NCBI GenBank assembly: GCA_024278075.1
Contig: JAJRTW010000129.1
Span: 7,522-71,521, forward strand
Direction of reading: 5' to 3'
Length of the DNA: 64,000 nucleotides
Origin: Bacteroidota bacterium
Lineage (GTDB): Bacteria > Bacteroidota > Ignavibacteria > Kapaibacteriales > UBA2268
Under the pieces are notes generated by a model. That model saw nothing but the letters and a program-made list of their open reading frames with translations. It was not told the DNA's origin and made no database searches. How positions within the stretch are numbered: the stretch's first letter is position 1; every line of letters begins with the position of its first letter. Of the stretch, positions 7,133 through 45,328 are shown one piece after another. A program made the translations under genes and the position numbers.

Positions 7133-8203
7133 TTATGTTATAACGGACTGATTAAGGATTGAAAATGTCTTCTTGGTTGCGTCCATTTCCGCTTGAGTTC
7201 CAATCGGCAGTGTCAGCTTATTTTTTACATGTCCGAAGGGCAGGCCGATAAGCGTGGGCTTGCCAACCGGCTTGACCACCTGATCGATTACTTCTTTAAT
7301 CGTATAAGACCTGTTCGGATAGAAAGGCCTTCTGTAGTTCAATTCCTTAAAATGGCCAAAGATTATTCCGTTGCATTCATCGAATTTTCCGGCCAGAAGC
7401 AGTTGTGTTAACATTCGGTCAATTTTATAGGGGTGTTCCGAAACTTCTTCGATTAGTAGAATTTTATCTTTCGTATCTATCTCATAATCGGTGCCGAGTG
7501 TGCTTGTAAGCATAGTCAGATTGCCACCAACAAGAGTGCCGCTTGCCGAGCCTCCATTAATTGTCAATCCGCGGGGCACTTTAATTTCCACCGGCTCGAA
7601 GCTGCTACTGGCAAACAAAATTTTCTTCAGATTATTAACCGTGAATGAGTTGAAGGTAACCGAAGCCACAGGGCCGTGGAAAGTAACAAGGCCAGTTCTT
7701 TGGTAGACAGCATTCAGCAGTGCTGTAATATCGCTGAACCCGATAATTATTTTCGGATGCTCTTTGAACAGATTAAAATCGATCATAGGAAGGATTCTCA
7801 TAATCCCGTAGCCGCCTCTGCCGCAAAGGATTGCATCAATATCGTCGCGTTTCAGAAACTCCATAAGCTCCAAAGCACGCACTTCGTCGGGGGCGGAGAA
7901 ATAGCGGTATTGATTTCGGCTTTTCCGGATTGTATCGCCAACAACTATCTTACAGCCCATTTTCTTGAGTGCTTTATATCCTTTTGCTATTTCGCCCATA
8001 CTGGTAGGCGAGGCCGGAGCGGTGATGGCTACAGTGGAATCCTTCGCCAGGGCTTTGGGCAATAATATCTTCTCGCTGTTCGGGATTTCAGGTATTTCCG
8101 GAATGATAATATCAGGGCTGACACTAATTTCCTTTGCCTGCGATTTCATATAAACGGCAGACAGTCCGGTAACCGACAGAAATTTCCTTCTCGATAATTT
8201 CAT
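7133..8203 (-). CDS. ldcA: LD-carboxypeptidase (peptidase S66, muramoyltetrapeptide carboxypeptidase) with Tat signal
   Basis: Twin-arginine signal SRRKFLSVTG. S66 motifs ILCGRGGYG and GFSDITAL. Confidence 0.75.
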   Translation of the reverse strand: MKLSRRKFLSVTGLSAVYMKSQAKEISVSPDIIIPEIPEIPNSEKILLPKALAKDSTVAITAPASPTSMGEIAKGYKALKKMGCKIVVGDTIRKSRNQYRYFSAPDEVRALELMEFLKRDDIDAILCGRGGYGIMRILPMIDFNLFKEHPKIIIGFSDITALLNAVYQRTGLVTFHGPVASVTFNSFTVNNLKKILFASSSFEPVEIKVPRGLTINGGSASGTLVGGNLTMLTSTLGTDYEIDTKDKILLIEEVSEHPYKIDRMLTQLLLAGKFDECNGIIFGHFKELNYRRPFYPNRSYTIKEVIDQVVKPVGKPTLIGLPFGHVKNKLTLPIGTQAEMDATKKTFSILNQSVIT

Positions 8204-9168: not shown

Positions 9169-10704
9169 ATGAAAACACGTATTACCACACTCGCTATTCT
9201 CTTTGTCATATTTAACATTATCCCCTCCAATGCTATTGACGGACAAGCACGAGCCAAACCGGGGCACATTCCATTTCCCGGAATGAATGAACAGCAAGAA
9301 CTATTTCCGTCCGGACTTGGAGAAATGAACGAAGACGGTGCGGTAAGATTTATGAAGATGGGCGATGGGGTTCAAAGCAATCCGGGTTATCTTGTTGAAA
9401 GTGTAAGAGTGTATTCATTGGTTGATAGCAATACTAAATACATATACGCTTACAATGAAAGCAATCAAATATTAACTGAAACATCCGAAGGATGGGAAAA
9501 CGGTGCATGGGTGAATTATGAAAGAATAACCAACACTTATGATTCCGATGGTAATCTCCTTACTAATTCACAGCAAAGATGGGAAAACGGTGCATGGGTG
9601 AATTATGAAAGAAGAACCAACACATACGACGAGAATAGTAATTTATTAACATGGTTATACGAATTAAAAATTAGCGAAAAGTGGGTGGAATTAATAAAAT
9701 ACACCTACACATACGACGAGAATAACAATATGTTGACATGGCTACAACAAAGCGGTATTGATGATGAATGGGTAAATGTTTTCAGATTTTCCCATACATA
9801 CGACGAGAATAACAATATATTGACATTGCAGAGAGAGGACTGGAAAAACGAGGCATGGCTAATATACATGAGATATATAAACACCTACGACTCTGAAGGC
9901 AATTTAATTACAAAAATATTTTTACAATGGGAAAATGAAGAATGGCATGATTATTCCCGAAGCACCTACGACTATGATGATGAAGGCAAACAGCTGTCAT
10001 GGGTTAAAGCAACCTGGAAAAATGAAGAGTGGGTGGATTTTAGCAGAGAAATTAACACTTACGACATTAACGGCAATCTGATACTATGGACATCTCAAAA
10101 TCTGCAGAATGAAGAATGGGTGGGTTTTAGGCAGGAAACAAACACCTACGATACCGATGGCAATCTAAGAACATCTATATATCAAAGAATAAGAAACTAT
10201 GAATGGGTCAATGATTGGAGAAAAACTTACACGTACAACACCGACGGCAATTTAATAGTATGGTCATATAGTCTTTGGCAAAACGAAGAATGGGCAGATA
10301 ATGGATTCTATTTATCTTTTGAAGACTCCTATGGAAATTCTTTTGGTAACTATTACGGTTTCAGCATAGGAATTATATGGAGGAGTGCTACTTCTGTCGA
10401 GGATGAATCGGATGACAACTTCTCCGTAACGTCTTTCCCCAATCCGTTCTCCGGTTCCACTACAATAAATTATACTCTTGACAATCCCGCCCGGGTTCGT
10501 ATTAATATTTATGACAATCTCGGAATTAAAATAACTTCTTTGATTGATGAATATCAATCCGCCGGCGAACATCAGGCGATATTCAATGCAATAAAAACAG
10601 GCAATCGCCTAAAAACAGGCAATCGCCTGTCAGCCGGAATGTATTACTATACTGTTCAAATAAATAATCAATTTGAACAAGGGAAATTATTGCTGGTGAA
10701 ATAA
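9169..10704 (+). CDS. Secreted YD-repeat-like protein with T9SS CTD
   Basis: About 12 degenerate repeats W(E/K)N(G/E)xWVxxxRxTNTYDxxGNLLT (YD-like). C-terminus FPNPFSGSTTINYTL...GMYYYTVQI. In-frame 18-bp tandem duplication KTGNRLKTGNRL inside the CTD. Confidence 0.6.
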   Translation: MKTRITTLAILFVIFNIIPSNAIDGQARAKPGHIPFPGMNEQQELFPSGLGEMNEDGAVRFMKMGDGVQSNPGYLVESVRVYSLVDSNTKYIYAYNESNQILTETSEGWENGAWVNYERITNTYDSDGNLLTNSQQRWENGAWVNYERRTNTYDENSNLLTWLYELKISEKWVELIKYTYTYDENNNMLTWLQQSGIDDEWVNVFRFSHTYDENNNILTLQREDWKNEAWLIYMRYINTYDSEGNLITKIFLQWENEEWHDYSRSTYDYDDEGKQLSWVKATWKNEEWVDFSREINTYDINGNLILWTSQNLQNEEWVGFRQETNTYDTDGNLRTSIYQRIRNYEWVNDWRKTYTYNTDGNLIVWSYSLWQNEEWADNGFYLSFEDSYGNSFGNYYGFSIGIIWRSATSVEDESDDNFSVTSFPNPFSGSTTINYTLDNPARVRINIYDNLGIKITSLIDEYQSAGEHQAIFNAIKTGNRLKTGNRLSAGMYYYTVQINNQFEQGKLLLVK

Positions 10705-12029: not shown

Positions 12030-13202
12030 CTAATTGTATTCGGGCAATGTATGTTCCCTACCCTTATTCTGCTCTTTTAAGTAATCCATCAGCGGGGCGA
12101 AATAATCAACCATCGGTTTGGCGCTCATATCCGAGCCGATGCTGGTTTGCAGCAATTCCCTCCAATCGACAGAAGCACCGGGCTTCATAATATCATAGAG
12201 GAATTTGCCGGTTTCCTTGCTGCCCCAGTAATTCGTAGAATGAGGGTCTTGCTTCAATATGTTCTTGGCGATATAATCATGGAACTGGAACAAAAGTACA
12301 TAGGAAATTGCATAGTCGTAATACTGTGCGGGGTCGTTGTTGATGTGTGTTTTCGAAGTGGCATCGCAATACTCCTCCCCGCGCTCTGCCGGAGGTACTA
12401 TCCCCTGATATTCTAATTTCAAATTCCACCATTTCTTGTTGAATTGCCCGGCATCCAGATTATTCGAATATAATTCCCACTCGAAATCAGTCATCACTCC
12501 TGCACCCCATGGGATAAAGACAATATATTCGAGAGCTTCTTTGAGCAATGTCATAGTTTCATCGGTTTTCGCATTTTCGTCGATAAGGCCAAGCCCGGTG
12601 AGGAATGGCTTCTGCAGGGAGGCAAGGCCGAGCAGGCTGCCGATTGCTTCGTGATAGCCCCTGTTGGCTCCGGTGCGAAGGACTATCGGGACATCTGGGT
12701 TTGTGTAGGCATCGAAATAATATATATGGCCGAGTTCGTGCAGAGTGGTTGCCCACCAGCGGGTGTTGTTGACAATACTCATCAGTGAACGCAGGTCGTT
12801 GTTCAGGTCGATATGCCAGGCCGAGGCATGATTGTTCTTCTTATAGTCCGCATCATCGGGAAGCGGATAGAGGCTCGACAGCTCGTAGAAAGAATGTGGC
12901 AGCGAATCCAGCCCGAGGCTCACATAGAACCTTTCGCCTTCCTTGACTATCCAGTTGCCGGGTTTTTCTTTCAATACTTCATCAAGGTTCATACCCTCGA
13001 CATTCACTAAGGCCGTCCAGTCCTGCCCCCACCTGTTGGGCATCCAGTGCGCCGGCAGCATATCCGGCACTTCCTTGCCATATTTTTCTGCCAATGTATA
13101 TCTTGCCCAGGTGTGCAATTCACGATAAAGCGGCCAGATGTCTTTAATCATACTCTGGCAAACCGCCCTCATTTCTTCAACTGTCATGCCATATTCAGAC
13201 AC
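12030..13202 (-). CDS. Peptidyl-dipeptidase A (ACE-like, MEROPS M2) catalytic portion, C-terminal 390 aa of a split gene
   Basis: HEXXH zinc motif TLHELGHIYY, GANRGYHEAIG and KWWNLKLEYQGIVPP align residue-by-residue with the ACE C-domain. Starts at GTG directly after an in-frame TAA. Confidence 0.75.
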   Translation of the reverse strand: MSEYGMTVEEMRAVCQSMIKDIWPLYRELHTWARYTLAEKYGKEVPDMLPAHWMPNRWGQDWTALVNVEGMNLDEVLKEKPGNWIVKEGERFYVSLGLDSLPHSFYELSSLYPLPDDADYKKNNHASAWHIDLNNDLRSLMSIVNNTRWWATTLHELGHIYYFDAYTNPDVPIVLRTGANRGYHEAIGSLLGLASLQKPFLTGLGLIDENAKTDETMTLLKEALEYIVFIPWGAGVMTDFEWELYSNNLDAGQFNKKWWNLKLEYQGIVPPAERGEEYCDATSKTHINNDPAQYYDYAISYVLLFQFHDYIAKNILKQDPHSTNYWGSKETGKFLYDIMKPGASVDWRELLQTSIGSDMSAKPMVDYFAPLMDYLKEQNKGREHTLPEYN

Positions 13203-25372: not shown

Positions 25373-26500
25373 ATGTTTATGAGGAAGCTAACGATGAAAA
25401 TGATATTAAAGGTGTGCCCGGCAATTGTGATAATTGCATTGTTGCTGCCATGCAATAATCTCTTTGGCCAGGCCGGAGGCTCTGCAGTGCCGTTCATATC
25501 GATTTCGCCGGACGCCAGGGCCAGTGGAATGGGCGAGGTAGGCACAGCCATAGCCGATGATATAAATGCCATATATTGGAATCCCGGTGGATTGGCGTTT
25601 TTGGATTATTTTGATTACGGCGATGATTTTGACATGGATGAAGAATTAATACCGTATCGTCAGGTTGCTTTATCTTACTCGCTTTGGCTGCCACAGTTTA
25701 ATGCCGACCTGTTTTACAGCTATCTAACAGTTGGCCAGTATTTTGAAGATTTAGACGGCACGGTTGCCTTCAACTTTATCTTTATGAATCTTGGCGAGTT
25801 TACTAAGACAAGCGCACAGGGCACAGTATTGGGGAAGTTCATGTCCAATGAATTCGCCGCGGGGTTGTCTTATGGCACTATTATCGCTCCGGATTTGGGG
25901 GTTGGCTTTCAATTAAAATATATTCAGTCTAATTTGACACCAACATCAGTGCAGGGCCAGGATGCAGGCACCGGCATTAGTGCTGCTTTCGATATTGGAG
26001 TGCTGTGGAAACCGCAGAGCCTGGATTTTCTTGATATTGAAGACCGGTTGGCGCTGGGATTGAACCTTCAGAATATTGGCCCGAAGATGACCTATATAAA
26101 AGAATCCGACCCATTGCCCTCCACTCTCCGCATGGGCATTGCTTTTGATGTGGTTAAGGATGAATTCAATGAGCTCACATTTGCTTTTGATTTTGCTAAA
26201 TTATTAGTTAAACGCGATTCATTGGGATCTGACCCTTTGCCGAAATCGCTTGTTTCCTCATGGGAAAACCGGGGGGCGGAATTGTCTTTCGGGATGGAAT
26301 ACTGGTACGAACACGTAGTTGCTTTAAGAGCAGGATATTTCACGGAACCGGCGGTGCTGGGCAATAGGAAATATTATAATTTCGGGGCCGGAGTGCGCTA
26401 TGATATATTCAGATTAGACTTTAGCTTTATCAATACAATAGAAGAAAATCACCCGCTGGCAAATACTATGCGATTCTCGATGCTGATTGATTGGGAATAG
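25373..26500 (+). CDS. porV: PorV/LptO-family T9SS outer-membrane shuttle protein
   Basis: N-terminal signature AVPFISISPDARASGMGEVGTAIADDINAIYWNPGGLAF is typical of PorV. About 375 aa, beta-barrel-like, and adjacent to the porU homologue. Confidence 0.7.
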   Translation: MFMRKLTMKMILKVCPAIVIIALLLPCNNLFGQAGGSAVPFISISPDARASGMGEVGTAIADDINAIYWNPGGLAFLDYFDYGDDFDMDEELIPYRQVALSYSLWLPQFNADLFYSYLTVGQYFEDLDGTVAFNFIFMNLGEFTKTSAQGTVLGKFMSNEFAAGLSYGTIIAPDLGVGFQLKYIQSNLTPTSVQGQDAGTGISAAFDIGVLWKPQSLDFLDIEDRLALGLNLQNIGPKMTYIKESDPLPSTLRMGIAFDVVKDEFNELTFAFDFAKLLVKRDSLGSDPLPKSLVSSWENRGAELSFGMEYWYEHVVALRAGYFTEPAVLGNRKYYNFGAGVRYDIFRLDFSFINTIEENHPLANTMRFSMLIDWE

Positions 26501-36199: not shown

Positions 36200-37513
36200 A
36201 TGACATTCAAAACGCCAAATATCTTCAAAGCCATCTGCTTAATAATGGTTTTATTTTACTCTGATTCTGGCATAATCTATAGCCAAGTCGAATCGGGCCA
36301 AACTCTTGACAAGATTGTTGCCGTTGTGGGCAAGCAAATCATTATGCAGTCCGACATAGATGCGCGAATTACGCTAATGGCCCAGCAAGATACATCGCTC
36401 GATATTCAAGATGCTGAAATCAGAAAGCAGGTATTGGATGCTTTTATCAACGAGAAATTAATAATCACTAAGGCGATTGAGGATTCGGTGGAAGTAACCG
36501 AAGAAGAAGTTGACCAGCGGCTGGAAATCGTATTGCAGGATTTGGTGCGACGGTATGGATCGGAGAAAAGAATCGAAGACATCTACGGCCTGTCGATTGC
36601 CAGGTTAAAATTTGAGTACCGCGATGAGATAAAGAAATCATTGCTATCGCAGAAAATCGGGCAGATTAAATTTTCTAATGTTAAATGCTCGCCCCAGGAA
36701 GTAGAGGGGTTTTTCAAGGAATATCAGGATTCTCTTCAAATGGTGCCGCCGCAAGTGGAAGTATGCCATATTGTCAAATATGTAAAACCGGAGGAATCTG
36801 CCAAGAAGAAGGCCATCGATTTGGCTAATAAGGTTCGGGATTCGATATTGGATGGCGGCGACTTTGCTGAATTTGCCCGAAGATACAGCGGAGACCCGGG
36901 CTCGGCGGCTGATGGCGGGAACTTAGGCTGGTTCGACAAAGGAAGCCTGTTCCCCGAATTCGAAAAAGCTGCATTTGCACTTCAGGTGGGCGAAACCTCT
37001 CTTCCCGTTGGAACACCTTTTGGCTACCACCTTATCCAGACAATCGACAAGAAAAAGGACGCCTTGCTGACAAGGCATATTCTATTCAGGTTTGAGCAAT
37101 CCAACGATGAGAAAGAGAAGGTAAAGCAGGAATTATTGGAATTAAAGAAGCGGGCGGAAAGTGGGGAATCTTTTGAAGAATTGGCCAAAGAATACTCCGA
37201 CGACAAAGATACACGCGGTTTTGGTGGGTTGATCGGCAAATTGGATAAAGAGAATCTGCCCGTCAATATTGCAACAGCTGTTAAGGATTTGAAGGAAGGA
37301 TGTATTTGCGATCCGGTGCCGTATGGGAATGATCCAACAAAACCCGGGTTTAATATTGTGTATCTTAAAAAGATTTACCCGGAGCATAAGCCCACATTGG
37401 ATGAGGATTATAAGCAAATAGAGCAAATAGCTGCCATGCAGAAGCGACAAAAACTATACTTGAAATGGATAGAGGAATTAAGAAAAGAGATGTATTGGGA
37501 AATTAAGGAATAA
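36200..37513 (+). CDS. SurA-like chaperone / parvulin PPIase
   Basis: Signal peptide, SurA N-domain and parvulin motifs (TPFGYHLIQ). Confidence 0.7.
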   Translation: MTFKTPNIFKAICLIMVLFYSDSGIIYSQVESGQTLDKIVAVVGKQIIMQSDIDARITLMAQQDTSLDIQDAEIRKQVLDAFINEKLIITKAIEDSVEVTEEEVDQRLEIVLQDLVRRYGSEKRIEDIYGLSIARLKFEYRDEIKKSLLSQKIGQIKFSNVKCSPQEVEGFFKEYQDSLQMVPPQVEVCHIVKYVKPEESAKKKAIDLANKVRDSILDGGDFAEFARRYSGDPGSAADGGNLGWFDKGSLFPEFEKAAFALQVGETSLPVGTPFGYHLIQTIDKKKDALLTRHILFRFEQSNDEKEKVKQELLELKKRAESGESFEELAKEYSDDKDTRGFGGLIGKLDKENLPVNIATAVKDLKEGCICDPVPYGNDPTKPGFNIVYLKKIYPEHKPTLDEDYKQIEQIAAMQKRQKLYLKWIEELRKEMYWEIKE

Positions 37514-37668: not shown

Positions 37669-38958
37669 ATGCAGCGAAACAGATTAAAAAAATTCCGTAG
37701 TGGTGATAATATCAACAGGGAATCAGACAGCCGGTTGATTTTCAATAAAACAGTTATATCCAACGGGATTCGGGTAATTACCGAAGAAGTTCCCAATGTG
37801 GAATCATTTGCTCTCGGTATATTCATCAATGCCGGTTCGCGAGAGGACCTCCACCACCCCGGGATTGCGCATTTTCTTGAGCATGCCGCCTTCAGGCATA
37901 CCCGCAGCCGCACTTCCAGGCAAATTGCGTCGCAATTCGAATCCATCGGGGCGTATACCAATGCCTACACTTCTAAGGAATACACTTGCTTCTATGTTCG
38001 GGCATTGAAAAAGAATTTCAGGAAATCGCTTGAGCTTCTGATCGATGTATGCCTGAACCCCGCACTTGCCGAACGGGATATTGAGAAGGAAAGGCCTATT
38101 CTGATCGAAGAGATTAATTCTTATGATGATGATGCTGAGGACCAGATTTTTGATTTGGCGGACAGCGTGATGTTCCCCGGGCATCCGTTGGGCAATGTCA
38201 TAACCGGCGACAAGCAATCGGTATCGAGAATATCGCAGGCCGACATTGTTGATTTTAAGAACAGCCATTATCACCCCGAAAATATTTTGATAGCTGTTGC
38301 AGGGAATCTGCCGCATTCGAGAATTAATAGTCTTGTGGAAGGATTTACTGCTGATATTCAGGCGGTTTCCAATGATTATCAGAGAAGCTGGCCCGGCGCT
38401 GTTGCACCCTCAAACCTGAGTATTAATAAGCCAATTCAGCAATCGCACTTCCTGCTTGGCAAACGAATTGGCGGCATTGATGACGGCGAAAGGTATCCAC
38501 TGGCATTGATTAATGTACTTTTTGGCGATGGCATGAGTTCGCGGCTGTATCAATCCCTGAGGGAGAAGAACGGCCTTGCCTATAATATTTATTCTTCGAT
38601 TCATCTGTATTCCGATTGCGGGACTTTTTATATTTATGCCGGTTTCGACAGAGCTAAAAAAACGAAAATTGAAAGGCTAATATATCGTGAAATTGAAAAG
38701 CTCGGTAAATTGAAATTGACTAAAGTGGAAATTGCAAGGGCAAAGGAGCAGCTCAAATCCGGTATAATTATGGAAATGGAGGGCCTGGCCGAAAGGATGG
38801 CTTCGCTGGCCAAAAGTGAATTCTACCTCGGCAAAAGGGAGGAGGTCTCCGAGATTCTCGATAATATTGACGCTATTTCAAACGATGAACTCAACGAAAT
38901 CATCTCGAAATATTTTACCTCGGACGGATGGTCGGAAGTGAGTATAATGCCTGAGTAA
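37669..38958 (+). CDS. Peptidase M16 (insulinase/pitrilysin family)
   Basis: Inverted zinc motif HFLEHAAF (HxxEH). Confidence 0.8.
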   Translation: MQRNRLKKFRSGDNINRESDSRLIFNKTVISNGIRVITEEVPNVESFALGIFINAGSREDLHHPGIAHFLEHAAFRHTRSRTSRQIASQFESIGAYTNAYTSKEYTCFYVRALKKNFRKSLELLIDVCLNPALAERDIEKERPILIEEINSYDDDAEDQIFDLADSVMFPGHPLGNVITGDKQSVSRISQADIVDFKNSHYHPENILIAVAGNLPHSRINSLVEGFTADIQAVSNDYQRSWPGAVAPSNLSINKPIQQSHFLLGKRIGGIDDGERYPLALINVLFGDGMSSRLYQSLREKNGLAYNIYSSIHLYSDCGTFYIYAGFDRAKKTKIERLIYREIEKLGKLKLTKVEIARAKEQLKSGIIMEMEGLAERMASLAKSEFYLGKREEVSEILDNIDAISNDELNEIISKYFTSDGWSEVSIMPE

Positions 38959-39018: not shown

Positions 39019-39528
39019 TTAATAGTTATATATCATCGTAGTATCGAAAATAACGCTGTATTTTTCTTCTAATCTCGGTATTAATAGCCAGTTATTTCTT
39101 ACTATCAATATTTCTTCTATACCTGTGATAGAAATGTCAATATTATAAAAATACTTTTCCTCGGCATCATTTCTATAAACGCTACGTTTTATCTCACTGG
39201 GACCAGTTTTTGTAACAAAACCAATTAAAGTATGATCATTAAAATCTATTTCAGGCAGTTCATAGTCAGGACAGTCAAAATATTGCCATCGAATATCAAG
39301 CAATTTGTTATATTCATTGGTATTCCTTATTACGTAATTTTCTGCTATTTTGTCTCCATCCATGCATTCAATATTAATGGACATAGTATCCGTTACCTCC
39401 ACCCAATTCTTATCATTCAGAATTGTATTGATGTCGATATCTTGCGTATATTCCGTCGCTTGCTCATCGCCGCAGGCGACAGCAGCAATAATGAATATTG
39501 CAAATATTAAACTTGTGAGTGATTTCAT
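39019..39528 (-). CDS. Hypothetical lipoprotein, paralogue A (tandem pair)
   Basis: MKSLTSLIFAIFIIAAVACGDE lipobox. The N-terminus is nearly identical to that of the neighbouring gene. Confidence 0.45.
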   Translation of the reverse strand: MKSLTSLIFAIFIIAAVACGDEQATEYTQDIDINTILNDKNWVEVTDTMSINIECMDGDKIAENYVIRNTNEYNKLLDIRWQYFDCPDYELPEIDFNDHTLIGFVTKTGPSEIKRSVYRNDAEEKYFYNIDISITGIEEILIVRNNWLLIPRLEEKYSVIFDTTMIYNY

Positions 39529-39596
39529 TTTCCGCTGAACCAATTCAAAAACACATAAATAAGTTTTCATTACAACACCTAACATTTTCGATAATG

Positions 39597-40118
39597 CTAA
39601 TTATTAAATAAACTTCTTAAGGAATAATCAAAATCCTTAAAATTTTCCGGATACTTACCAGTTCCATTTGAAGGATTAATATTAACTTTTTTAAGTGTAT
39701 CAGCCTTATCACTTCTCCAACTTAAAGTTTCAAAGGATGATAACGACATAGGTGGTACAGTTGTATCAATATCCCATGGAATAGTTGAAGGATAATCAAT
39801 AAAATTAATTCTAATAAAAATACTATCTAAAGAATTTAAAAAATCTTTGCTAACTTTAGTTTCTTCAATAAAACGATAATCTTCAATTACTCTGCCACTT
39901 CCATAAAGTCGATGGTATAATTTAAACTTACCGGAAAACTCAATGACTCTTTTAATCATTGTTATATCATTTTCTTCATATACATCTTGAAAACCCCCGA
40001 ATTCATAAATATATTTTATTTCTTCTTGGTTAACTGTATTAATTACATTTTTATCATCGCCGCAGGCGATTGCAGCAATTAATAATATTGCAAATATTAA
40101 ACTTGTGAGCGGCTTCAT
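39597..40118 (-). CDS. Hypothetical lipoprotein, paralogue B (tandem pair)
   Basis: MKPLTSLIFAILLIAAIACGDDK lipobox. Confidence 0.45.
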   Translation of the reverse strand: MKPLTSLIFAILLIAAIACGDDKNVINTVNQEEIKYIYEFGGFQDVYEENDITMIKRVIEFSGKFKLYHRLYGSGRVIEDYRFIEETKVSKDFLNSLDSIFIRINFIDYPSTIPWDIDTTVPPMSLSSFETLSWRSDKADTLKKVNINPSNGTGKYPENFKDFDYSLRSLFNN

Positions 40119-40214
40119 TTTTCTTTCTCCTCTATTCATTATAATAAATTAGTTTCGGATGAAAACAAAAACTCCCGAATCTATAATAGGCCTGGGAGTG
40201 TAAATATAACAAAC

Positions 40215-40238
40215 AACAGGGGGCTTCAGCCCCTTGTT
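40215..40238 (-). terminator. Hairpin AACAGGGGGC-TTCA-GCCCCTTGTT 3' of the 918-aa gene (probable intrinsic terminator)
   Basis: 10-bp GC-rich stem. On the minus strand it is followed by a U-rich GUUUGUUAUAUUU. Confidence 0.45.
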
Positions 40239-40253
40239 CATAACATGATTTGT

Positions 40254-43010
40254 TTATTCCGGATCCATCCAGACGGTTTCCTGCATGGATTTGCATTTGC
40301 CGTATTCGAAACTGAATTCCTCGTCGGCATACCCGTCCTTTTCAACGACAACAGTGTAAGTCTTTGGGGCGCAAAGCTCCTCACGAACATAATAGCCTTC
40401 GTTGTTTGATTCACCCTCGGCTATCACATCGTCGCCGTCGTATATCTTCACGCTTGCACCGCTCAAATAGTCTTCGCTATCCTTATCCCTGATAATTAAT
40501 TTCAGCCTGCCGGTGCAGCATTCACCGTCATCGGCTTCAAGTTCCTTTGTAATTTCCAGAGTTTCATCGCAGTCAAGCTCGGCTTCGAATTCAATATTGT
40601 TATAATCCTCGTGCATAATATCAATACCATAGCCACCTTCGCAGAGGCCGTCAAAGATTGCCACACCGTTGCTAATCTCAGCAGTTTCAACCAGCTTGCC
40701 ACCTTTCCACAGCTTAACCTTGCCGCCGTTTATCGCCTCGCCATCGGCATTTTTCGGGTATATTTTCATCACCCCATTGCAGCATTCCCGCTCTTCGATA
40801 GTCACCTCTTTTTCGATAGTTTCATCGCAATCAAACTCAACTTCAAACTCACCCTCTTCGCGGCCTTGATACAGTACGTCCACTCGGTATGCACCCTTGC
40901 ACATTCCGTCGAACATAGCAGCGCCGCCTTTCAATTCCACTTTCTCGACCAATTTACCATCCCGGAATATCCTAACATAGCCGCCGTTAATGCTGTTGCC
41001 TTCGCTGTCCTTTACATTTACTTTCAATATACCTTTACAGCATTCCTGTTCCGAAATAATCACCTCTCTTTCGATAGTTTCGTTGCAATCGAACTCAACT
41101 TCAAACTCACCCTCTTCGCGGCCTTGATACAGTACGTCCACTCGGTATGCACCCTTGCACATTCCGTCGAACATAGCAGCGCTGCCTTTCAATTCCACTT
41201 TCTCGACCAATTTACCATCCCGGAATATCCTAACATAGCCGCCGTTAATGCTGGTGCCTTCGCTGTCCTTTACATTTACTTTCAATATGCCTTTGCAGCA
41301 TTCATCTTTGGATGTCATTTCCTTAACGAACTCAACTTCGCCATCGCATCCGATTTCGAATTCAAATTCAATCACGCCATAGCCCTCGCCGGAGATTCGT
41401 ATATCGTAGCTGCCTTCGCAGACACCGTCAAATACAACGCCATCCTCACTTTTTTGAATTAATTTTTCAATCATAGCCGGATGCTGGCGCAGTTCGATTT
41501 TTGCCCCGATAATCACTTCGCCGGTTTCACTATCCTTTGCAACTACACGAACCAGCCCATGGCAACATTCCATGTCTCTGGTCATTTTCTTATGGATTTC
41601 CTTTTCGCCATTACAATCCAGTTCTACTTCGAATATCATTTCTTCGTAGTCTTCGCTTTGGATTTTCACGACATAGCCGCCTTCGCAAAGCTCTTCGAAA
41701 ACGGCAAAGCTATCTTCAATTTCCTGAACGGCAATCTCTTCGCCATCTTGTATTAATACAACTCTTGCATTCTTGATTCTATCGCCTGTCTTGGCATCCT
41801 TCGGGATCACATAAATCTTGCCATCGCAGCAATCATCGCCTTCAAGTTCTTTTACGATTGGCTTCTGCTCGTTGCATCCAAGCTCGACTTCAAACTCGAT
41901 ATTCTTATAATTTTCGTGCGAAATCTTAATACTATAAACACCTTCGCACAGGCCGGAGAAATCAATTCCCTCGGCAGTAGTAATTCCGGATAGCACCAAA
42001 TCACCGTCAAGCCATACATCTACTTTCGCGCCAATAATTGGGTCTGCCGTTTCGGCATCCTGCGGCGTTATTATCATCACCCCATTGCAACAACTTGTGT
42101 CCTTTTCAGTCATAATAATAGTATAGTCAACTGTTTGGTCACAATCAAGCTCTACGGTAAATTCAACGGTTTCATAACCGGAGTTTCTCATCTTCACCGA
42201 GTAGACGCCCTCGCACAGACTGTCGAGCACGGCTTGCCCATTTTCGCTTCTAACTTCGCGGGTATCTTCGCTTCCGTCCCTTTTTGCGGTAATTAGGACA
42301 TCATTGATAACCGCATTTGTTAAGCTGTCCCGCGGCGTAATTGTTATTGAACCATCGCAGCATGAATCCTCGGGAGTACTCATAGGCTTCATCACAATCG
42401 GCAATAAGGGGTCGTCGCACTCGATTATGTTAACTTCCCGCTCAACGACTTTGAAACCATCTTTCGACAGCCTCAAAACGTATTCACCTTCGCATACATT
42501 TTCGAACACTAATTTGCCATCGCTGTTTGTAAACTCCTTGCGGTTTAGCTTGCTGCCGCGCGTTAGCCGCACCTTAACATCATCAATAGGCGACTCATCC
42601 ACAGATGAAGTGACTGCCACCCCGATTTCTCCGCAGCAATCCTCACGGTGCTGAATTTTCACCGGAATCTTTTCGGCGCCTTTATTCTCTTCTTTCAGAG
42701 TTAACAGAGAAAGAGTGGCCGTACGGAAGTCGCCGTGCAGAATGTTCAAATTAATATCCAACAGGCTTTCAGGAATATTCTTCAGTAAGAAGTTCCCGTC
42801 TTCATCTGTGGTATCACGGTCTAATATTTTGCCAGCTTTGTTTATGGCGTCGACAATTGCACCCGGAACTGATATGCCCTGTTCGTCAGAGATTATTCCG
42901 GATACTTCAATAGTGTTTTCAGGTGGCGTAACCGTTTCCTCGCAGGAGAAAAGCACTGTTAGTACGAAAATTGATAGAAATATCTTTACGGCTGTAATAG
43001 AAAATCTCAT
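40254..43010 (-). CDS. Cys-rich repetitive lipoprotein: about ten 86-aa modules (CarbopepD_reg / transthyretin-like fold suspected), each bounded by CCxG...CEG.Y...DC
   Basis: Lipoprotein signal LFSCEE. Modules such as ECCKGILKVNVKDSEG.SINGGYVRIFRDGKLVEKVELKG.AAMFDGMCKGAYRVDVLYQGREEGEFEVEFDC. Two adjacent modules are about 95% identical at the DNA level, with a period of about 258 bp (approximately 40790-41310). Confidence 0.5.
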   Translation of the reverse strand: MRFSITAVKIFLSIFVLTVLFSCEETVTPPENTIEVSGIISDEQGISVPGAIVDAINKAGKILDRDTTDEDGNFLLKNIPESLLDINLNILHGDFRTATLSLLTLKEENKGAEKIPVKIQHREDCCGEIGVAVTSSVDESPIDDVKVRLTRGSKLNRKEFTNSDGKLVFENVCEGEYVLRLSKDGFKVVEREVNIIECDDPLLPIVMKPMSTPEDSCCDGSITITPRDSLTNAVINDVLITAKRDGSEDTREVRSENGQAVLDSLCEGVYSVKMRNSGYETVEFTVELDCDQTVDYTIIMTEKDTSCCNGVMIITPQDAETADPIIGAKVDVWLDGDLVLSGITTAEGIDFSGLCEGVYSIKISHENYKNIEFEVELGCNEQKPIVKELEGDDCCDGKIYVIPKDAKTGDRIKNARVVLIQDGEEIAVQEIEDSFAVFEELCEGGYVVKIQSEDYEEMIFEVELDCNGEKEIHKKMTRDMECCHGLVRVVAKDSETGEVIIGAKIELRQHPAMIEKLIQKSEDGVVFDGVCEGSYDIRISGEGYGVIEFEFEIGCDGEVEFVKEMTSKDECCKGILKVNVKDSEGTSINGGYVRIFRDGKLVEKVELKGSAAMFDGMCKGAYRVDVLYQGREEGEFEVEFDCNETIEREVIISEQECCKGILKVNVKDSEGNSINGGYVRIFRDGKLVEKVELKGGAAMFDGMCKGAYRVDVLYQGREEGEFEVEFDCDETIEKEVTIEERECCNGVMKIYPKNADGEAINGGKVKLWKGGKLVETAEISNGVAIFDGLCEGGYGIDIMHEDYNNIEFEAELDCDETLEITKELEADDGECCTGRLKLIIRDKDSEDYLSGASVKIYDGDDVIAEGESNNEGYYVREELCAPKTYTVVVEKDGYADEEFSFEYGKCKSMQETVWMDPE

Positions 43011-43255
43011 AGCATCATCCTTATAAATTAATATAAATTCAGTGTGGAAATTTATTCATGCTCTATTTATATAATAATTATTAACAGTTAATAATATAAA
43101 TAATTACAATTTCGGGATTAATTCTATCTACCGAACATCTTATATATAATCACCCTATGTTGCTAAATCACTCTATGTTGCTAACTTATCTTAGGCAGCA
43201 AGGAAAAGCCGTCAGGAGACTGCCCATGCTGCCTGAAAAAAACAGAACAGTCGTT

Positions 43256-45328
43256 CTACATCCCAAGCAGGCTCATAACGAACCTCCACTCCAGCGATAT
43301 ATTCTCAATGGATTGTTCGATGGATTTCCCCGAGCCGTGGCCACTTTCGAAATCGACAAACAGCATTATCGGATTCGTCTGCCCCGGGTTATGCTGCAGG
43401 GCTGCCACAAATTTCTTGGCATGCAGAGGGTCTACCCTCGAATCATTCTCGCCGGCCTTAACGAGCATTGTGGGATAGTCGAACCCTTCGCGGATATTAT
43501 GATAAGGCGAATAAGTGAGAATGTACCCAAGGTCAGCCTTCACGTCCGGGTCGCCGTATTCCGGTATCCAGTACCGGGCAATCAGGAACTTATGATACCG
43601 GGCCATATCGAGCAACGGAACGGCACAAACCGCAGCCTTGAATAAATCCGGCCTTTGTGTTACCACAGCACCAATCAGCAATCCGCCGTTACTACCGCCG
43701 CGAATTGCCAGCCTGTCCGAAGTCGTATATTCCTCCTTGATTAGATATTCTGCCGCCGCAATGAAATCATCGAATGTATTTTGTTTATTTCTCAGCATTC
43801 CGGCCTGGTGCCAGTTCTCGCCATATTCGTCGCCGCCCCGCAGGCAGGCAATCGCATAAACCCCGCCGCGGTTGATGAATGAAGCGGTTGTGCCAAGATA
43901 GCGAGGCCTCATGCTAATGTTAAAACCGCCGTAGCCATAGAGAAGCACCGGATTGCCTGCGTCGAGTTTCATTCCCTTTTTGTGAATAATAAACAGAGGA
44001 ATCTTCGTCCCGTCATTGGATGGGTAGAAGACCAGTTTTGATGTAATATCCTTAGTGTCGATGGGGGGAGTATCCTGGAAGAAGAACTCCCAGGTTAAGG
44101 TTTTGCCGTCAAGCTTGTACACTTTGGACGATGAAGTAAACGTTCCCAAAGTAACGAAAACAGTGTTGGATTCCTTATGGAATTTAATACTACTGACATT
44201 TGCAACTTCAGGCAAATCAAGGGTTTTAACAAAATTGCCCTTAAGGTCGTAGGCCGACAACCTGCTCAGAACATCCTTCTTTTCCTGAATAATCACGTAA
44301 TCGGCTGTTATTTCGAAGTCCTCGAGCACGGTTTCCTTTTCCGGATAGAATTCCGCCCAGTTCTCGAATTCCGGTTTGTCAATATCAGTCCACATTATCT
44401 TGAAATTCGGAGCTTCTTGATTAGTGTAAAAAAAGATTTTGCCGTATTTCGCTTTCGGATTAGCTCTGAATTCCTTGCTGGAATAAATTACTTTCGGCTT
44501 TGCTTGCGAGCCGGCTTTTCTGATGCTAAGCGTATTGGAATAGAAATCCCCTTCGGAAAAGAAAGTAACCTCCCCGTCGCGGTCGTCCCAAACGCTGGCA
44601 AAATTCTTGGCATCATTTGGTGCCACAAGGAATACATCCTTTTTCCTATCCTCGCCGATTGTGTGCAGATAAGTTCTTATCGGCACCTGATTATCAATCA
44701 TTTCCTGAGTTCGGACAGCGATATAAGCATGTTCTTCGTCCAGAGTCCAGCCGAACCCACGCAGGCCTTTAATAGATTCGCCCTCCACCTTGCCGGTTTT
44801 GGTGTCTACAATGCGGTACTCGCTAATCTCATTTCCTTTGTATTGCAGGCCAATGGCGGCTTTATTGCCATCCTTGGTAAAAGCTGCACCCGTAAGGGCG
44901 GATTTCCCGGAAGAGTCTATCTCCTCGGGGTCAAATAATTTTATTACCTCGCCGTTTATCCGGGTAAATAATTTATTTTGCTGCTGTCCCTTTTTACGGG
45001 CATAGAAGAATTCGCGATTGCCTTTGAAGAATGGGGCGCCATTATAATCCCTGTTGAGGTATTTCTCAATCTCATCGTCCAGTCCATCGACCGCTTTGGT
45101 TTTTTCCTTCAGATATTTTACGGTGTAGTCGTGCTGGGCATGGGACCAATCGCTCACTTCGGGGTCTTTCTTATCCTCCAGCCATTGATAAAAATCCGTG
45201 AATATAAACCCGTGCATATTATCGGTTACCGCTTGACGCTTTGCAGCCGGCGGATTGAAACTGCCTTTGGCGAAAACGAATGAATAAGCAAAAATGAAGG
45301 CCAGTAATAAAAGTGCTGTATTTCTCAC
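43256..45328 (-). CDS. Prolyl oligopeptidase (peptidase S9A)
   Basis: N-terminal beta-propeller plus catalytic GGSNGGLLIGAV with the downstream Asp/His region. Signal peptide. Confidence 0.85.
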   Translation of the reverse strand: MRNTALLLLAFIFAYSFVFAKGSFNPPAAKRQAVTDNMHGFIFTDFYQWLEDKKDPEVSDWSHAQHDYTVKYLKEKTKAVDGLDDEIEKYLNRDYNGAPFFKGNREFFYARKKGQQQNKLFTRINGEVIKLFDPEEIDSSGKSALTGAAFTKDGNKAAIGLQYKGNEISEYRIVDTKTGKVEGESIKGLRGFGWTLDEEHAYIAVRTQEMIDNQVPIRTYLHTIGEDRKKDVFLVAPNDAKNFASVWDDRDGEVTFFSEGDFYSNTLSIRKAGSQAKPKVIYSSKEFRANPKAKYGKIFFYTNQEAPNFKIMWTDIDKPEFENWAEFYPEKETVLEDFEITADYVIIQEKKDVLSRLSAYDLKGNFVKTLDLPEVANVSSIKFHKESNTVFVTLGTFTSSSKVYKLDGKTLTWEFFFQDTPPIDTKDITSKLVFYPSNDGTKIPLFIIHKKGMKLDAGNPVLLYGYGGFNISMRPRYLGTTASFINRGGVYAIACLRGGDEYGENWHQAGMLRNKQNTFDDFIAAAEYLIKEEYTTSDRLAIRGGSNGGLLIGAVVTQRPDLFKAAVCAVPLLDMARYHKFLIARYWIPEYGDPDVKADLGYILTYSPYHNIREGFDYPTMLVKAGENDSRVDPLHAKKFVAALQHNPGQTNPIMLFVDFESGHGSGKSIEQSIENISLEWRFVMSLLGM

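Follow-up and report, generated by a model that had tools for sequence, protein, structure and literature searches.

A predicted lipoprotein of ten tandem transthyretin-like domains in a Kapaibacteriales bacterium: paired cysteine loss points to a possible disulfide-locked stalk

A stretch of 64 000 nt from contig JAJRTW010000129.1 (assembly GCA_024278075.1, a Bacteroidota bacterium of the Kapaibacteriales), referred to here as the window, was analysed with regard to a gene for a cysteine-rich repeat lipoprotein. A single long open reading frame (ORF) of 918 amino acids (aa) plus a stop codon, located on the minus strand, was shown to represent a complete coding sequence (Table 1), in line with a preliminary description of this DNA, which had also predicted the lipoprotein signal. 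The lipobox test ([LVI][ASTVI][GAS]C) was positive for the N-terminus, MRFSITAVKIFLSIFVLTVLFS-C23, and the residues after Cys23 of the LFSC lipobox, E-E-T-V-T-P-P-E, form an acidic stretch similar to a lipoprotein export signal (LES). The mature protein of ~896 aa has a mass of 99 kDa, a pI of 4.35 and a net charge of about -100. Its C-terminus (...ETVWMDPE) does not exhibit the LPXTG motif, hydrophobic segment and positive tail of a sortase-type anchor, and the type IX secretion system (T9SS) sorting domain Por_Secre_tail was represented only by an internal match (aa 344-370) of 21.5 bits, compared with a cut-off of 27.

The CC dipeptide occurs nine times in the protein at intervals of 86-92 aa (period roughly 88 aa), and each occurrence opens a module with the spacing CC-x46/47-C-x23/25-C and exactly four Cys residues. 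Together with the lipobox Cys, these nine modules account for all 37 Cys residues (9 x 4 + 1), as the N-terminal domain is Cys-free. The protein had been described as consisting of about ten 86-aa modules with five Cys each and about 50 in total; the repeat length and the number of domains were upheld, while one of the ten domains lacks Cys and the Cys counts are to be corrected to 4 and 37. The module motif given at that time, D/E-CC-x-G ... F..(L/M)C(E/K)G.Y ... EFEVE.DC, was found as written. Across the family described below, the order of domains was observed to be a Cys-free N-terminal domain, a first-type module, a variable number of middle-type modules and a last-type module, with each of the three module types bearing its own position-specific signature residues. 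The N-terminal domain carries a family-invariant DTTDEDG motif (D46-G52 in the family alignment).

Table 1. Positions of the lipoprotein gene, its domains and other features in the window
Feature	Position	Strand	Remarks
Lipoprotein coding sequence, 918 aa	40254-43010	-	complete
Signal peptide, aa 1-22, and lipobox L-F-S-C	42942-43010	-	Cys23, predicted lipidation site
N-terminal Cys-free CarboxypepD_reg domain, aa ~34-122	42645-42911	-	best Pfam stretch aa 36-107
Module 1, aa 124-215, first-type	42366-42641	-	signature veVrL...R.aK.GY.V.E...CD
Modules 2-5, aa 216-305, 306-392, 393-480 and 481-569, middle-type	41304-42365	-	4 Cys each
Module 6, aa 570-655, duplication copy A	41046-41303	-	258-bp tandem repeat
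Module 7, aa 656-741, duplication copy B	40788-41045	-	258-bp tandem repeat
Module 8, aa 742-829, middle-type	40524-40787	-	41-44% identical to modules 6 and 7
Module 9, aa 830-918, last-type	40257-40523	-	reaches C-terminus; signature CCtA.lkl...LCa.tY...eC....E
Terminator-like hairpin GGGGC-TGAA-GCCCC with T-rich tail	40220-40233	-	~20 nt past stop codon
18-bp direct repeat, 2.1 copies, TTAGCAACATAG[A/G]GTGAT (gene strand)	43148-43184		138-174 nt upstream of ATG
Small lipoprotein genes, 180 and 188 aa	39597-40139 and 39019-39585	-	tandem, directly downstream of the lipoprotein gene
PorU-like C25 peptidase, 1362 aa	20803-24891	+	core type IX secretion component
PorV	25373-26500	+	core type IX secretion component
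Cargo-like protein with T9SS sorting domain, 1556 aa	2370-7040	-	VWA and Ig-like domains
Cargo-like protein with T9SS sorting domain	9169-10704	+	
SurA-like parvulin peptidyl-prolyl isomerase (PPIase) genes, 676 and 437 aa	34067-36097 and 36200-37513	+	adjacent

Modules 6 and 7, previously singled out as near-identical neighbours, were confirmed as such, with 15 of 258 nt differing in a codon-by-codon comparison (94.2% identity). These differences affect 12 codons, of which seven are altered at the amino acid level, and ten of the 15 fall within the last 13 codons. Tandem Repeats Finder reported the same duplication at 40798-41303 (period 258, 2.0 copies, 96% matches), and every other pair of modules within the protein is at most 44% identical. 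Recent duplications of modules within the gene, at least 88% identical, were observed in about ten of 59 family members, so that the present duplication is regarded as one case of a recurrent change in stalk length. A plus-strand ORF lying within the repeats (40611-41462, 283 aa) was judged to be a shadow ORF and was disregarded.

Every module is a CarboxypepD_reg/transthyretin-like beta-sandwich, and the protein thus consists of ten tandem domains of this type. Pfam CarboxypepD_reg (PF13620, Transthyretin clan) matched in five stretches (156.5 bits compared with a cut-off of 32.3, E=2.3e-46), and an AlphaFold2 model with a predicted local distance difference test score of 95 exhibited a seven-stranded prealbumin-like beta-sandwich; the fold that had been proposed was thereby substantiated. 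The closest structural relatives are the CnaB/SpaA/SdrD-B stalk domains of Gram-positive adhesins, and the modules share with these a CnaB-like fold in which the first and last strands are neighbours. The Lys/Asn-Asp/Glu triad of CnaB domains was searched for in the family modules and was absent, with no conserved Asn or Asp in columns 79-87 (the last strand) and a Lys at the end of strand 1 that is only 50% conserved. No adhesive Pfam family scored above cut-off in the protein, and the last module represents a variant of the stalk domain.

A homology search of 5.8 billion proteins retrieved 58 strong homologues of 574-1069 aa (E=1e-227 to 1e-88, 28-42% identity), derived from Ignavibacteria, Ca. 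Kapaibacterium, FCB-group and Bacteroidota metagenome-assembled genomes (MAGs). Their names are generic ('carboxypeptidase regulatory-like domain-containing', 'SpaA isopeptide-forming pilin-related', 'MSCRAMM family', 'transthyretin family' or 'hypothetical'). A profile search of 1.84 billion cluster representatives yielded 1006 matches at E<=1e-30, and among the best 150 of these, 128 were new compared with the first search. Within the same best 150 matches, 89 of 92 new proteins shorter than 1300 aa contained at least three strict CC...C...C modules, whereas none of 36 Cys-free giants (1475-7796 aa, 11-53 repeats) did so, indicating that the CC...C...C signature marks a discrete subfamily. 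In total, the family comprises at least 148 sequences with 3-11 strict modules each, and the variable module number that was anticipated for orthologues was therefore found. A clear lipobox was present in 105 of the 148 sequences, 46 of which have two or more D/E residues at positions +2 to +5. The consensus after the lipobox is C-[DEQKN]-[DE]-[NDTS], with D or E at position +3 after the lipidated Cys in 77%.

The distribution of the family was further surveyed by scanning species-representative genomes with the N-terminal alignment motif DTTDEDGx[FY], which was chosen as the alignment of two consecutive modules was too degenerate. All 34 loci recovered in this manner, a set restricted to members with the exact motif, in which the genome of the window does not figure, belong to MAGs labelled as Ignavibacteria, Kapaibacteria, FCB or Bacteroidetes, and four of the genomes encode two paralogues. 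Nine loci (L013, L015, L021, L023, L024, L027, L033, L035 and L037) derive from 'binchicken'/TPA_asm MAGs whose record titles read 'uncultured Hyphomicrobiales bacterium', which has the appearance of a labelling artefact. The 918-aa protein occurs with its exact sequence in a public collection, where it was placed in a 90%-identity cluster represented by an unrelated 41-aa 'Planctomycetia' transaminase fragment; this placement is evidently a clustering artefact, and probably explains why the protein itself was missing from the homology-search results. Literature searches brought up neither an account of the family or of a CarboxypepD_reg repeat stapled by Cys, nor anything specific on surface proteins of Ignavibacteria. 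At the protein level, this is accordingly an unnamed and uncharacterised family, as had been suspected, while at the domain level it is a member of CarboxypepD_reg in the Transthyretin clan; the adhesive role tentatively attached to its novelty has no counterpart in a recognisable adhesive domain. The match to a well-known family that might have deprived the modules of novelty does exist, but CarboxypepD_reg is a generic family without the conserved Cys pattern.

To align all modules of the family, a hidden Markov model was built from the nine modules of the protein. In alignments of 437 to 1017 homologous modules, conservation of the four Cys columns (C1 to C4) was 94-95%, far beyond chance. 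Among 437 modules from 59 proteins, 391 retained all four Cys, while 22 lacked C1 together with C4 and 17 lacked C2 together with C3. Fisher tests on these modules, which take no account of phylogeny, gave p=6e-32 for C1-C4 and p=1e-32 for C2-C3, with the four cross pairs being weak or not significant (p=0.03 to 0.38). In a larger set of 895 complete modules, the raw patterns were 835 CCCC, 31 C--C, 19 -CC-, eight -C-C and two CCC-. On inspection, both CCC- cases were shown to possess C4 displaced by one column, and two of the -C-C cases retain C1 (DTCYG and DSCNG), so that none of the 895 complete modules has an odd number of these Cys residues. The exception to paired loss is represented by six similar first modules (DSACG...), falling into two groups, which retain C2 and C4.

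Independent losses were tallied separately by grouping, with two modules counted as one event if they were closer to each other than to the nearest intact module. This conservative procedure yielded at least eight loss events for C1+C4 and at least four for C2+C3, in addition to the two exceptional groups. Modules that keep only C1+C4 or only C2+C3 thus amount to 50 of 895 and to at least 12 independent events. Such partner-specific loss fits two separately dispensable disulfides rather than one four-ligand metal site. Neither a conserved His nor CxxC or CxxCH was found in the family modules. Of the two roles previously considered for the Cys residues, disulfide stapling is consequently supported, and metal binding through a Cys4 site is argued against.

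With respect to the predicted strands, C1 and C2 form the vicinal CC, C3 is located in the beta4-beta5 turn and C4 in the beta6-beta7 turn. All four are clustered at the domain's N-terminal pole, beside the junction with the previous domain. Taken with the co-loss, this arrangement suggests a nested topology with C1-C4 as the outer and C2-C3 as the inner bridge, in which the vicinal CC would tie the N-terminus to both hairpin turns.

Two further sets of conserved residues were observed. The DTTDEDG stretch of the N-terminal domain (aa 45-51, 42858-42878 in the window) resembles Ca2+ loops of the DxDxDG type. It also resembles the O-glycosylation motif of Bacteroides, D-(S/T)-(A/I/L/V/M/T). In each module, the residues bordering the Cys cluster are conserved as well (D-x-C-C and C-(N/D)-(D/E)-T). 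A cation site at the domain junctions, glycosylation or turn geometry are possible explanations for both.

On balance, and with modest confidence, we favour the view that the protein is a lipid-anchored, covalently riveted stalk or spacer of variable length, composed of ten domains of which nine are disulfide-locked. It would be an envelope protein anchored by its lipid, probably in the outer membrane and possibly exposed at the surface, and its tandem transthyretin/CnaB-like domains would form a rod of ~35-40 nm if extended (estimated at about 4 nm per domain). Each of the nine Cys-bearing domains would be locked by the two nested disulfides. The C1-C4 bridge is predicted to link the beginnings of strands 1 and 7. 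Some 71 of the ~87 residues would thereby be enclosed in a covalent loop, leaving most of the domain outside the path of a pulling force. A rod of this kind should withstand unfolding by force, heat or proteases, and may serve as a rigid, acidic stalk or spacer whose length evolves through gain and loss of middle modules, while the distinct last module might confer some form of binding. In CnaB-type stalks, the first and last strands, which are neighbours, are linked by a Lys-Asn isopeptide that forms autocatalytically (PMC12617251), and intramolecular covalent bonds of this kind are reported to confer thermal, proteolytic and mechanical resistance (PMC12617251; bioRxiv 10.1101/310227). Surface exposure of the protein is plausible, as the acidic residues behind its predicted lipidation site are reminiscent of the Bacteroidota LES, which in its canonical form consists of a polar or Lys residue followed by two to three acidic residues at +3 to +5 (PMC5080379).

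Several observations weigh against a surface stalk locked in this manner. Support for the pairing comes from the co-loss statistics and from where the Cys residues lie with respect to the strands, not from S-S distances, and the clade retaining C2 and C4 indicates that partners can be exchanged or that the nesting is not strict. Disulfides need an oxidising periplasm, and no Dsb or VKOR genes were seen in the 64-kb window. The C-E-E-T(-V-T) of the protein differs from the canonical LES, which was itself defined in Bacteroidota and not validated in Ignavibacteriota. No adhesive or ligand-binding domain was found among the Pfam matches of the protein, and when, after manual inspection of three loci, the ORFs of 35 loci were clustered, none of the neighbours in the window occurred beside any of the 34 homologues. 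Finally, an organisation of conserved ends and a variable middle was not supported by percent identity: medians were 34-37% in all module classes, and first and last modules are no more conserved than middle ones in overall identity.

Among the alternatives, a periplasmic structural lipoprotein, which would be anchored either in the inner membrane or in the outer membrane's inner leaflet and, instead of facing the outside of the cell, would act as a spacer or ruler that spans or organises the periplasm or the peptidoglycan, fares best, yet is considered unlikely. Such a location would agree with a lipobox that is unaccompanied by a T9SS C-terminal domain although the organism possesses a T9SS, with the departure of C-E-E-T from the canonical LES, and with the periplasm as the site at which disulfides are made. 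It is also suggested by one subclade (11 loci), in which the gene lies directly downstream of a penicillin-binding protein 2 (PBP2)-type transpeptidase. However, this neighbour is limited to that clade and is absent from the window. A ten-domain rod at the estimated 35-40 nm exceeds the typical periplasm, the range of 3 to 11 modules among members is a poor fit to a ruler of fixed width, and the frequent acidic residue at +3 is as in Bacteroidota surface lipoproteins.

Less probable still is a surface-coat or S-layer-like protein, of which numerous copies would form a dense acidic brush or lattice enclosing the cell as a defence against proteases, phage or grazers rather than single adhesive stalks. 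The extreme net charge and the lack of an adhesive domain are compatible with such a coat, as is the peptidase-rich genomic neighbourhood, and SlaB, an S-layer stalk, was among the top structural matches, where it shares the fold only. A weak NCBIfam match to the Kustd1514 anammox S-layer glycoprotein (NF052345, E=1e-9) points in the same direction, but at 36.2 bits compared with a cut-off of 1400 it reflects a shared domain fold only and was rejected as an assignment. Moreover, no lattice-forming or SLH-type domain was found in the protein.

Binding of a metal or cofactor (Zn, Fe, Cu or a thiophilic metalloid) by a Cys4 site or two Cys2 sites per module, for sequestration, mineral attachment or redox purposes, appears very unlikely. 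The 36 regularly spaced Cys residues, clustered in fours at one pole of each domain, would be a suitable arrangement, the flanking acidic or amide residues are conserved (D at -2 of CC in 78%, N/D after C4 in 80%) and many members originate from low-oxygen habitats, judged by sample names. Nevertheless, two specific Cys pairs are lost independently and modules with one pair persist, which a single Cys4 site would not tolerate; a conserved His and the motifs CxxC and CxxCH are missing, as stated above, and the protein is exported through a compartment where structural disulfides form. The Cys clusters, at an estimated distance of about 4 nm from each other, are also too far apart for electron hopping. 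Equally improbable is the broader view that the four-Cys clusters are more than structural staples, being functional thiol/disulfide or thiophilic-metal sites placed about every 4 nm along an anionic surface fibre of 35-40 nm. If true, the protein would be a redox-switchable or metal- or mineral-binding appendage of uncultured FCB bacteria. Oxidation would make it rigid, and reduction in anoxic sediment would render it extensible or load it with metal.

An intermolecular disulfide network that rigidifies the envelope, as in the cysteine-rich proteins of the chlamydial outer-membrane complex, would suit a Cys-rich lipoprotein with many exposed Cys-bearing turns, but is hardly credible given that the partners (C1-C4 and C2-C3) are within a module and at the same pole of the same domain, and that the even Cys number per complete module points to intramodule pairs.

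The disulfide-locked stalk favoured here resembles the CnaB/SpaA stalks (SdrD B repeats, the B. anthracis TIE protein 6fwv and C. diphtheriae SpaA) in its fold and in the logic of covalently joining first and last strands. It differs from these in that a disulfide pair, deduced as above, would replace the Lys-Asn/Asp isopeptide, whose triad is not conserved, and in that an N-terminal lipobox in a diderm FCB-group host takes the place of a C-terminal LPXTG. Compared with Gram-positive MSCRAMM and pilin proteins, neither a sortase nor an adhesive A-domain is found here. A 2025 survey of isopeptides (PMC12617251) reports disulfides that co-occur with isopeptides in other stalk families, and this domain is unmentioned in it. 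Generic PF13620/CarbopepD_reg_2 domains, such as those of carboxypeptidase D, NOMO and the N-terminal extensions of SusC/TonB-dependent receptors, are without conserved Cys; what sets the present subfamily apart is its CC...C...C staple, together with the lipoprotein anchor and an ordered N-domain/first/middle/last architecture.

Fibrillar adhesins, as outlined in excerpts of a survey (Monzon et al. 2021, PMC8286594), likewise consist of one long chain in which stalk domains of the Transthyretin clan follow each other in tandem and one end holds a cell anchor. The same excerpts name at least one adhesive domain as a defining requirement, and none is recognisable at the distal end here; lipoprotein anchoring is not among the anchor types quoted in them. 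With the surface lipoproteins of Bacteroidota that carry an LES (PMC5080379), the protein shares a lipobox followed by acidic residues and an FCB-group host with a T9SS.

If the pairing is confirmed, the family would represent a diderm counterpart of the isopeptide-riveted Gram-positive stalks, with the same fold, Dsb-type chemistry and a lipid anchor, and would illustrate convergent routes to inextensible, protease-resistant surface rods. The known fibrillar surface proteins would then be joined by a lipoprotein-anchored, 'stalk-only' architecture. With its compact 87 aa and two predicted staples, the module may be a robust scaffold for protein engineering, and the family can serve as a lineage marker for Ignavibacteria/Kapaibacteria-type MAGs. 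It is nonetheless a modest variation on a known theme, as disulfide-stabilised Ig-like stalks in a diderm bacterium are no great surprise to specialists.

The neighbours of the gene in the window include an S9 prolyl oligopeptidase, two small lipoproteins, an M16 peptidase and SurA-like PPIases. The two small lipoproteins have signal peptides that are 73% identical over 26 aa (MKPLTSLIFAILLIAAIACGDD and MKSLTSLIFAIFIIAAVACGDE) and unrelated mature parts; they gave no Pfam or NCBIfam match, and their exact sequences were absent from a collection of 15 billion proteins. They were rejected as partners, since no homologues of theirs occur beside other family members and a terminator-like hairpin lies between. 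In the Kapaibacteria-like subclade with the PBP2-type gene upstream (L007, L012, L013, L014, L017, L028 and relatives), six loci encode a conserved protein of ~177 aa without Pfam match downstream of the homologue, followed by a family-9 glycosyltransferase; this synteny is likewise absent from the window.

Elsewhere, the window encodes the core type IX secretion components and cargo-like proteins listed in Table 1, as well as the two adjacent parvulins. SurA-like PPIases are periplasmic chaperones for outer-membrane proteins. The window is also rich in peptidases (7133-8203, 12030-13202, 37669-38958 and 43256-45328), namely an S66 LD-carboxypeptidase, an M2 angiotensin-converting-enzyme-like peptidase, an M16 insulinase-type peptidase and a secreted S9 prolyl oligopeptidase, which is consistent with a proteolytic lifestyle.

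The terminator-like hairpin suggests that the lipoprotein gene is monocistronic. On its other side, the 18-bp direct repeat is placed in an intergenic region of 245 bp, next to a very AT-rich stretch, and could be a putative regulator binding site. Across the gene, GC skew is strongly negative (-0.29, window positions 40001-42000) and AT skew is -0.14, owing to a purine-rich coding strand for a protein rich in E, D, K and G.

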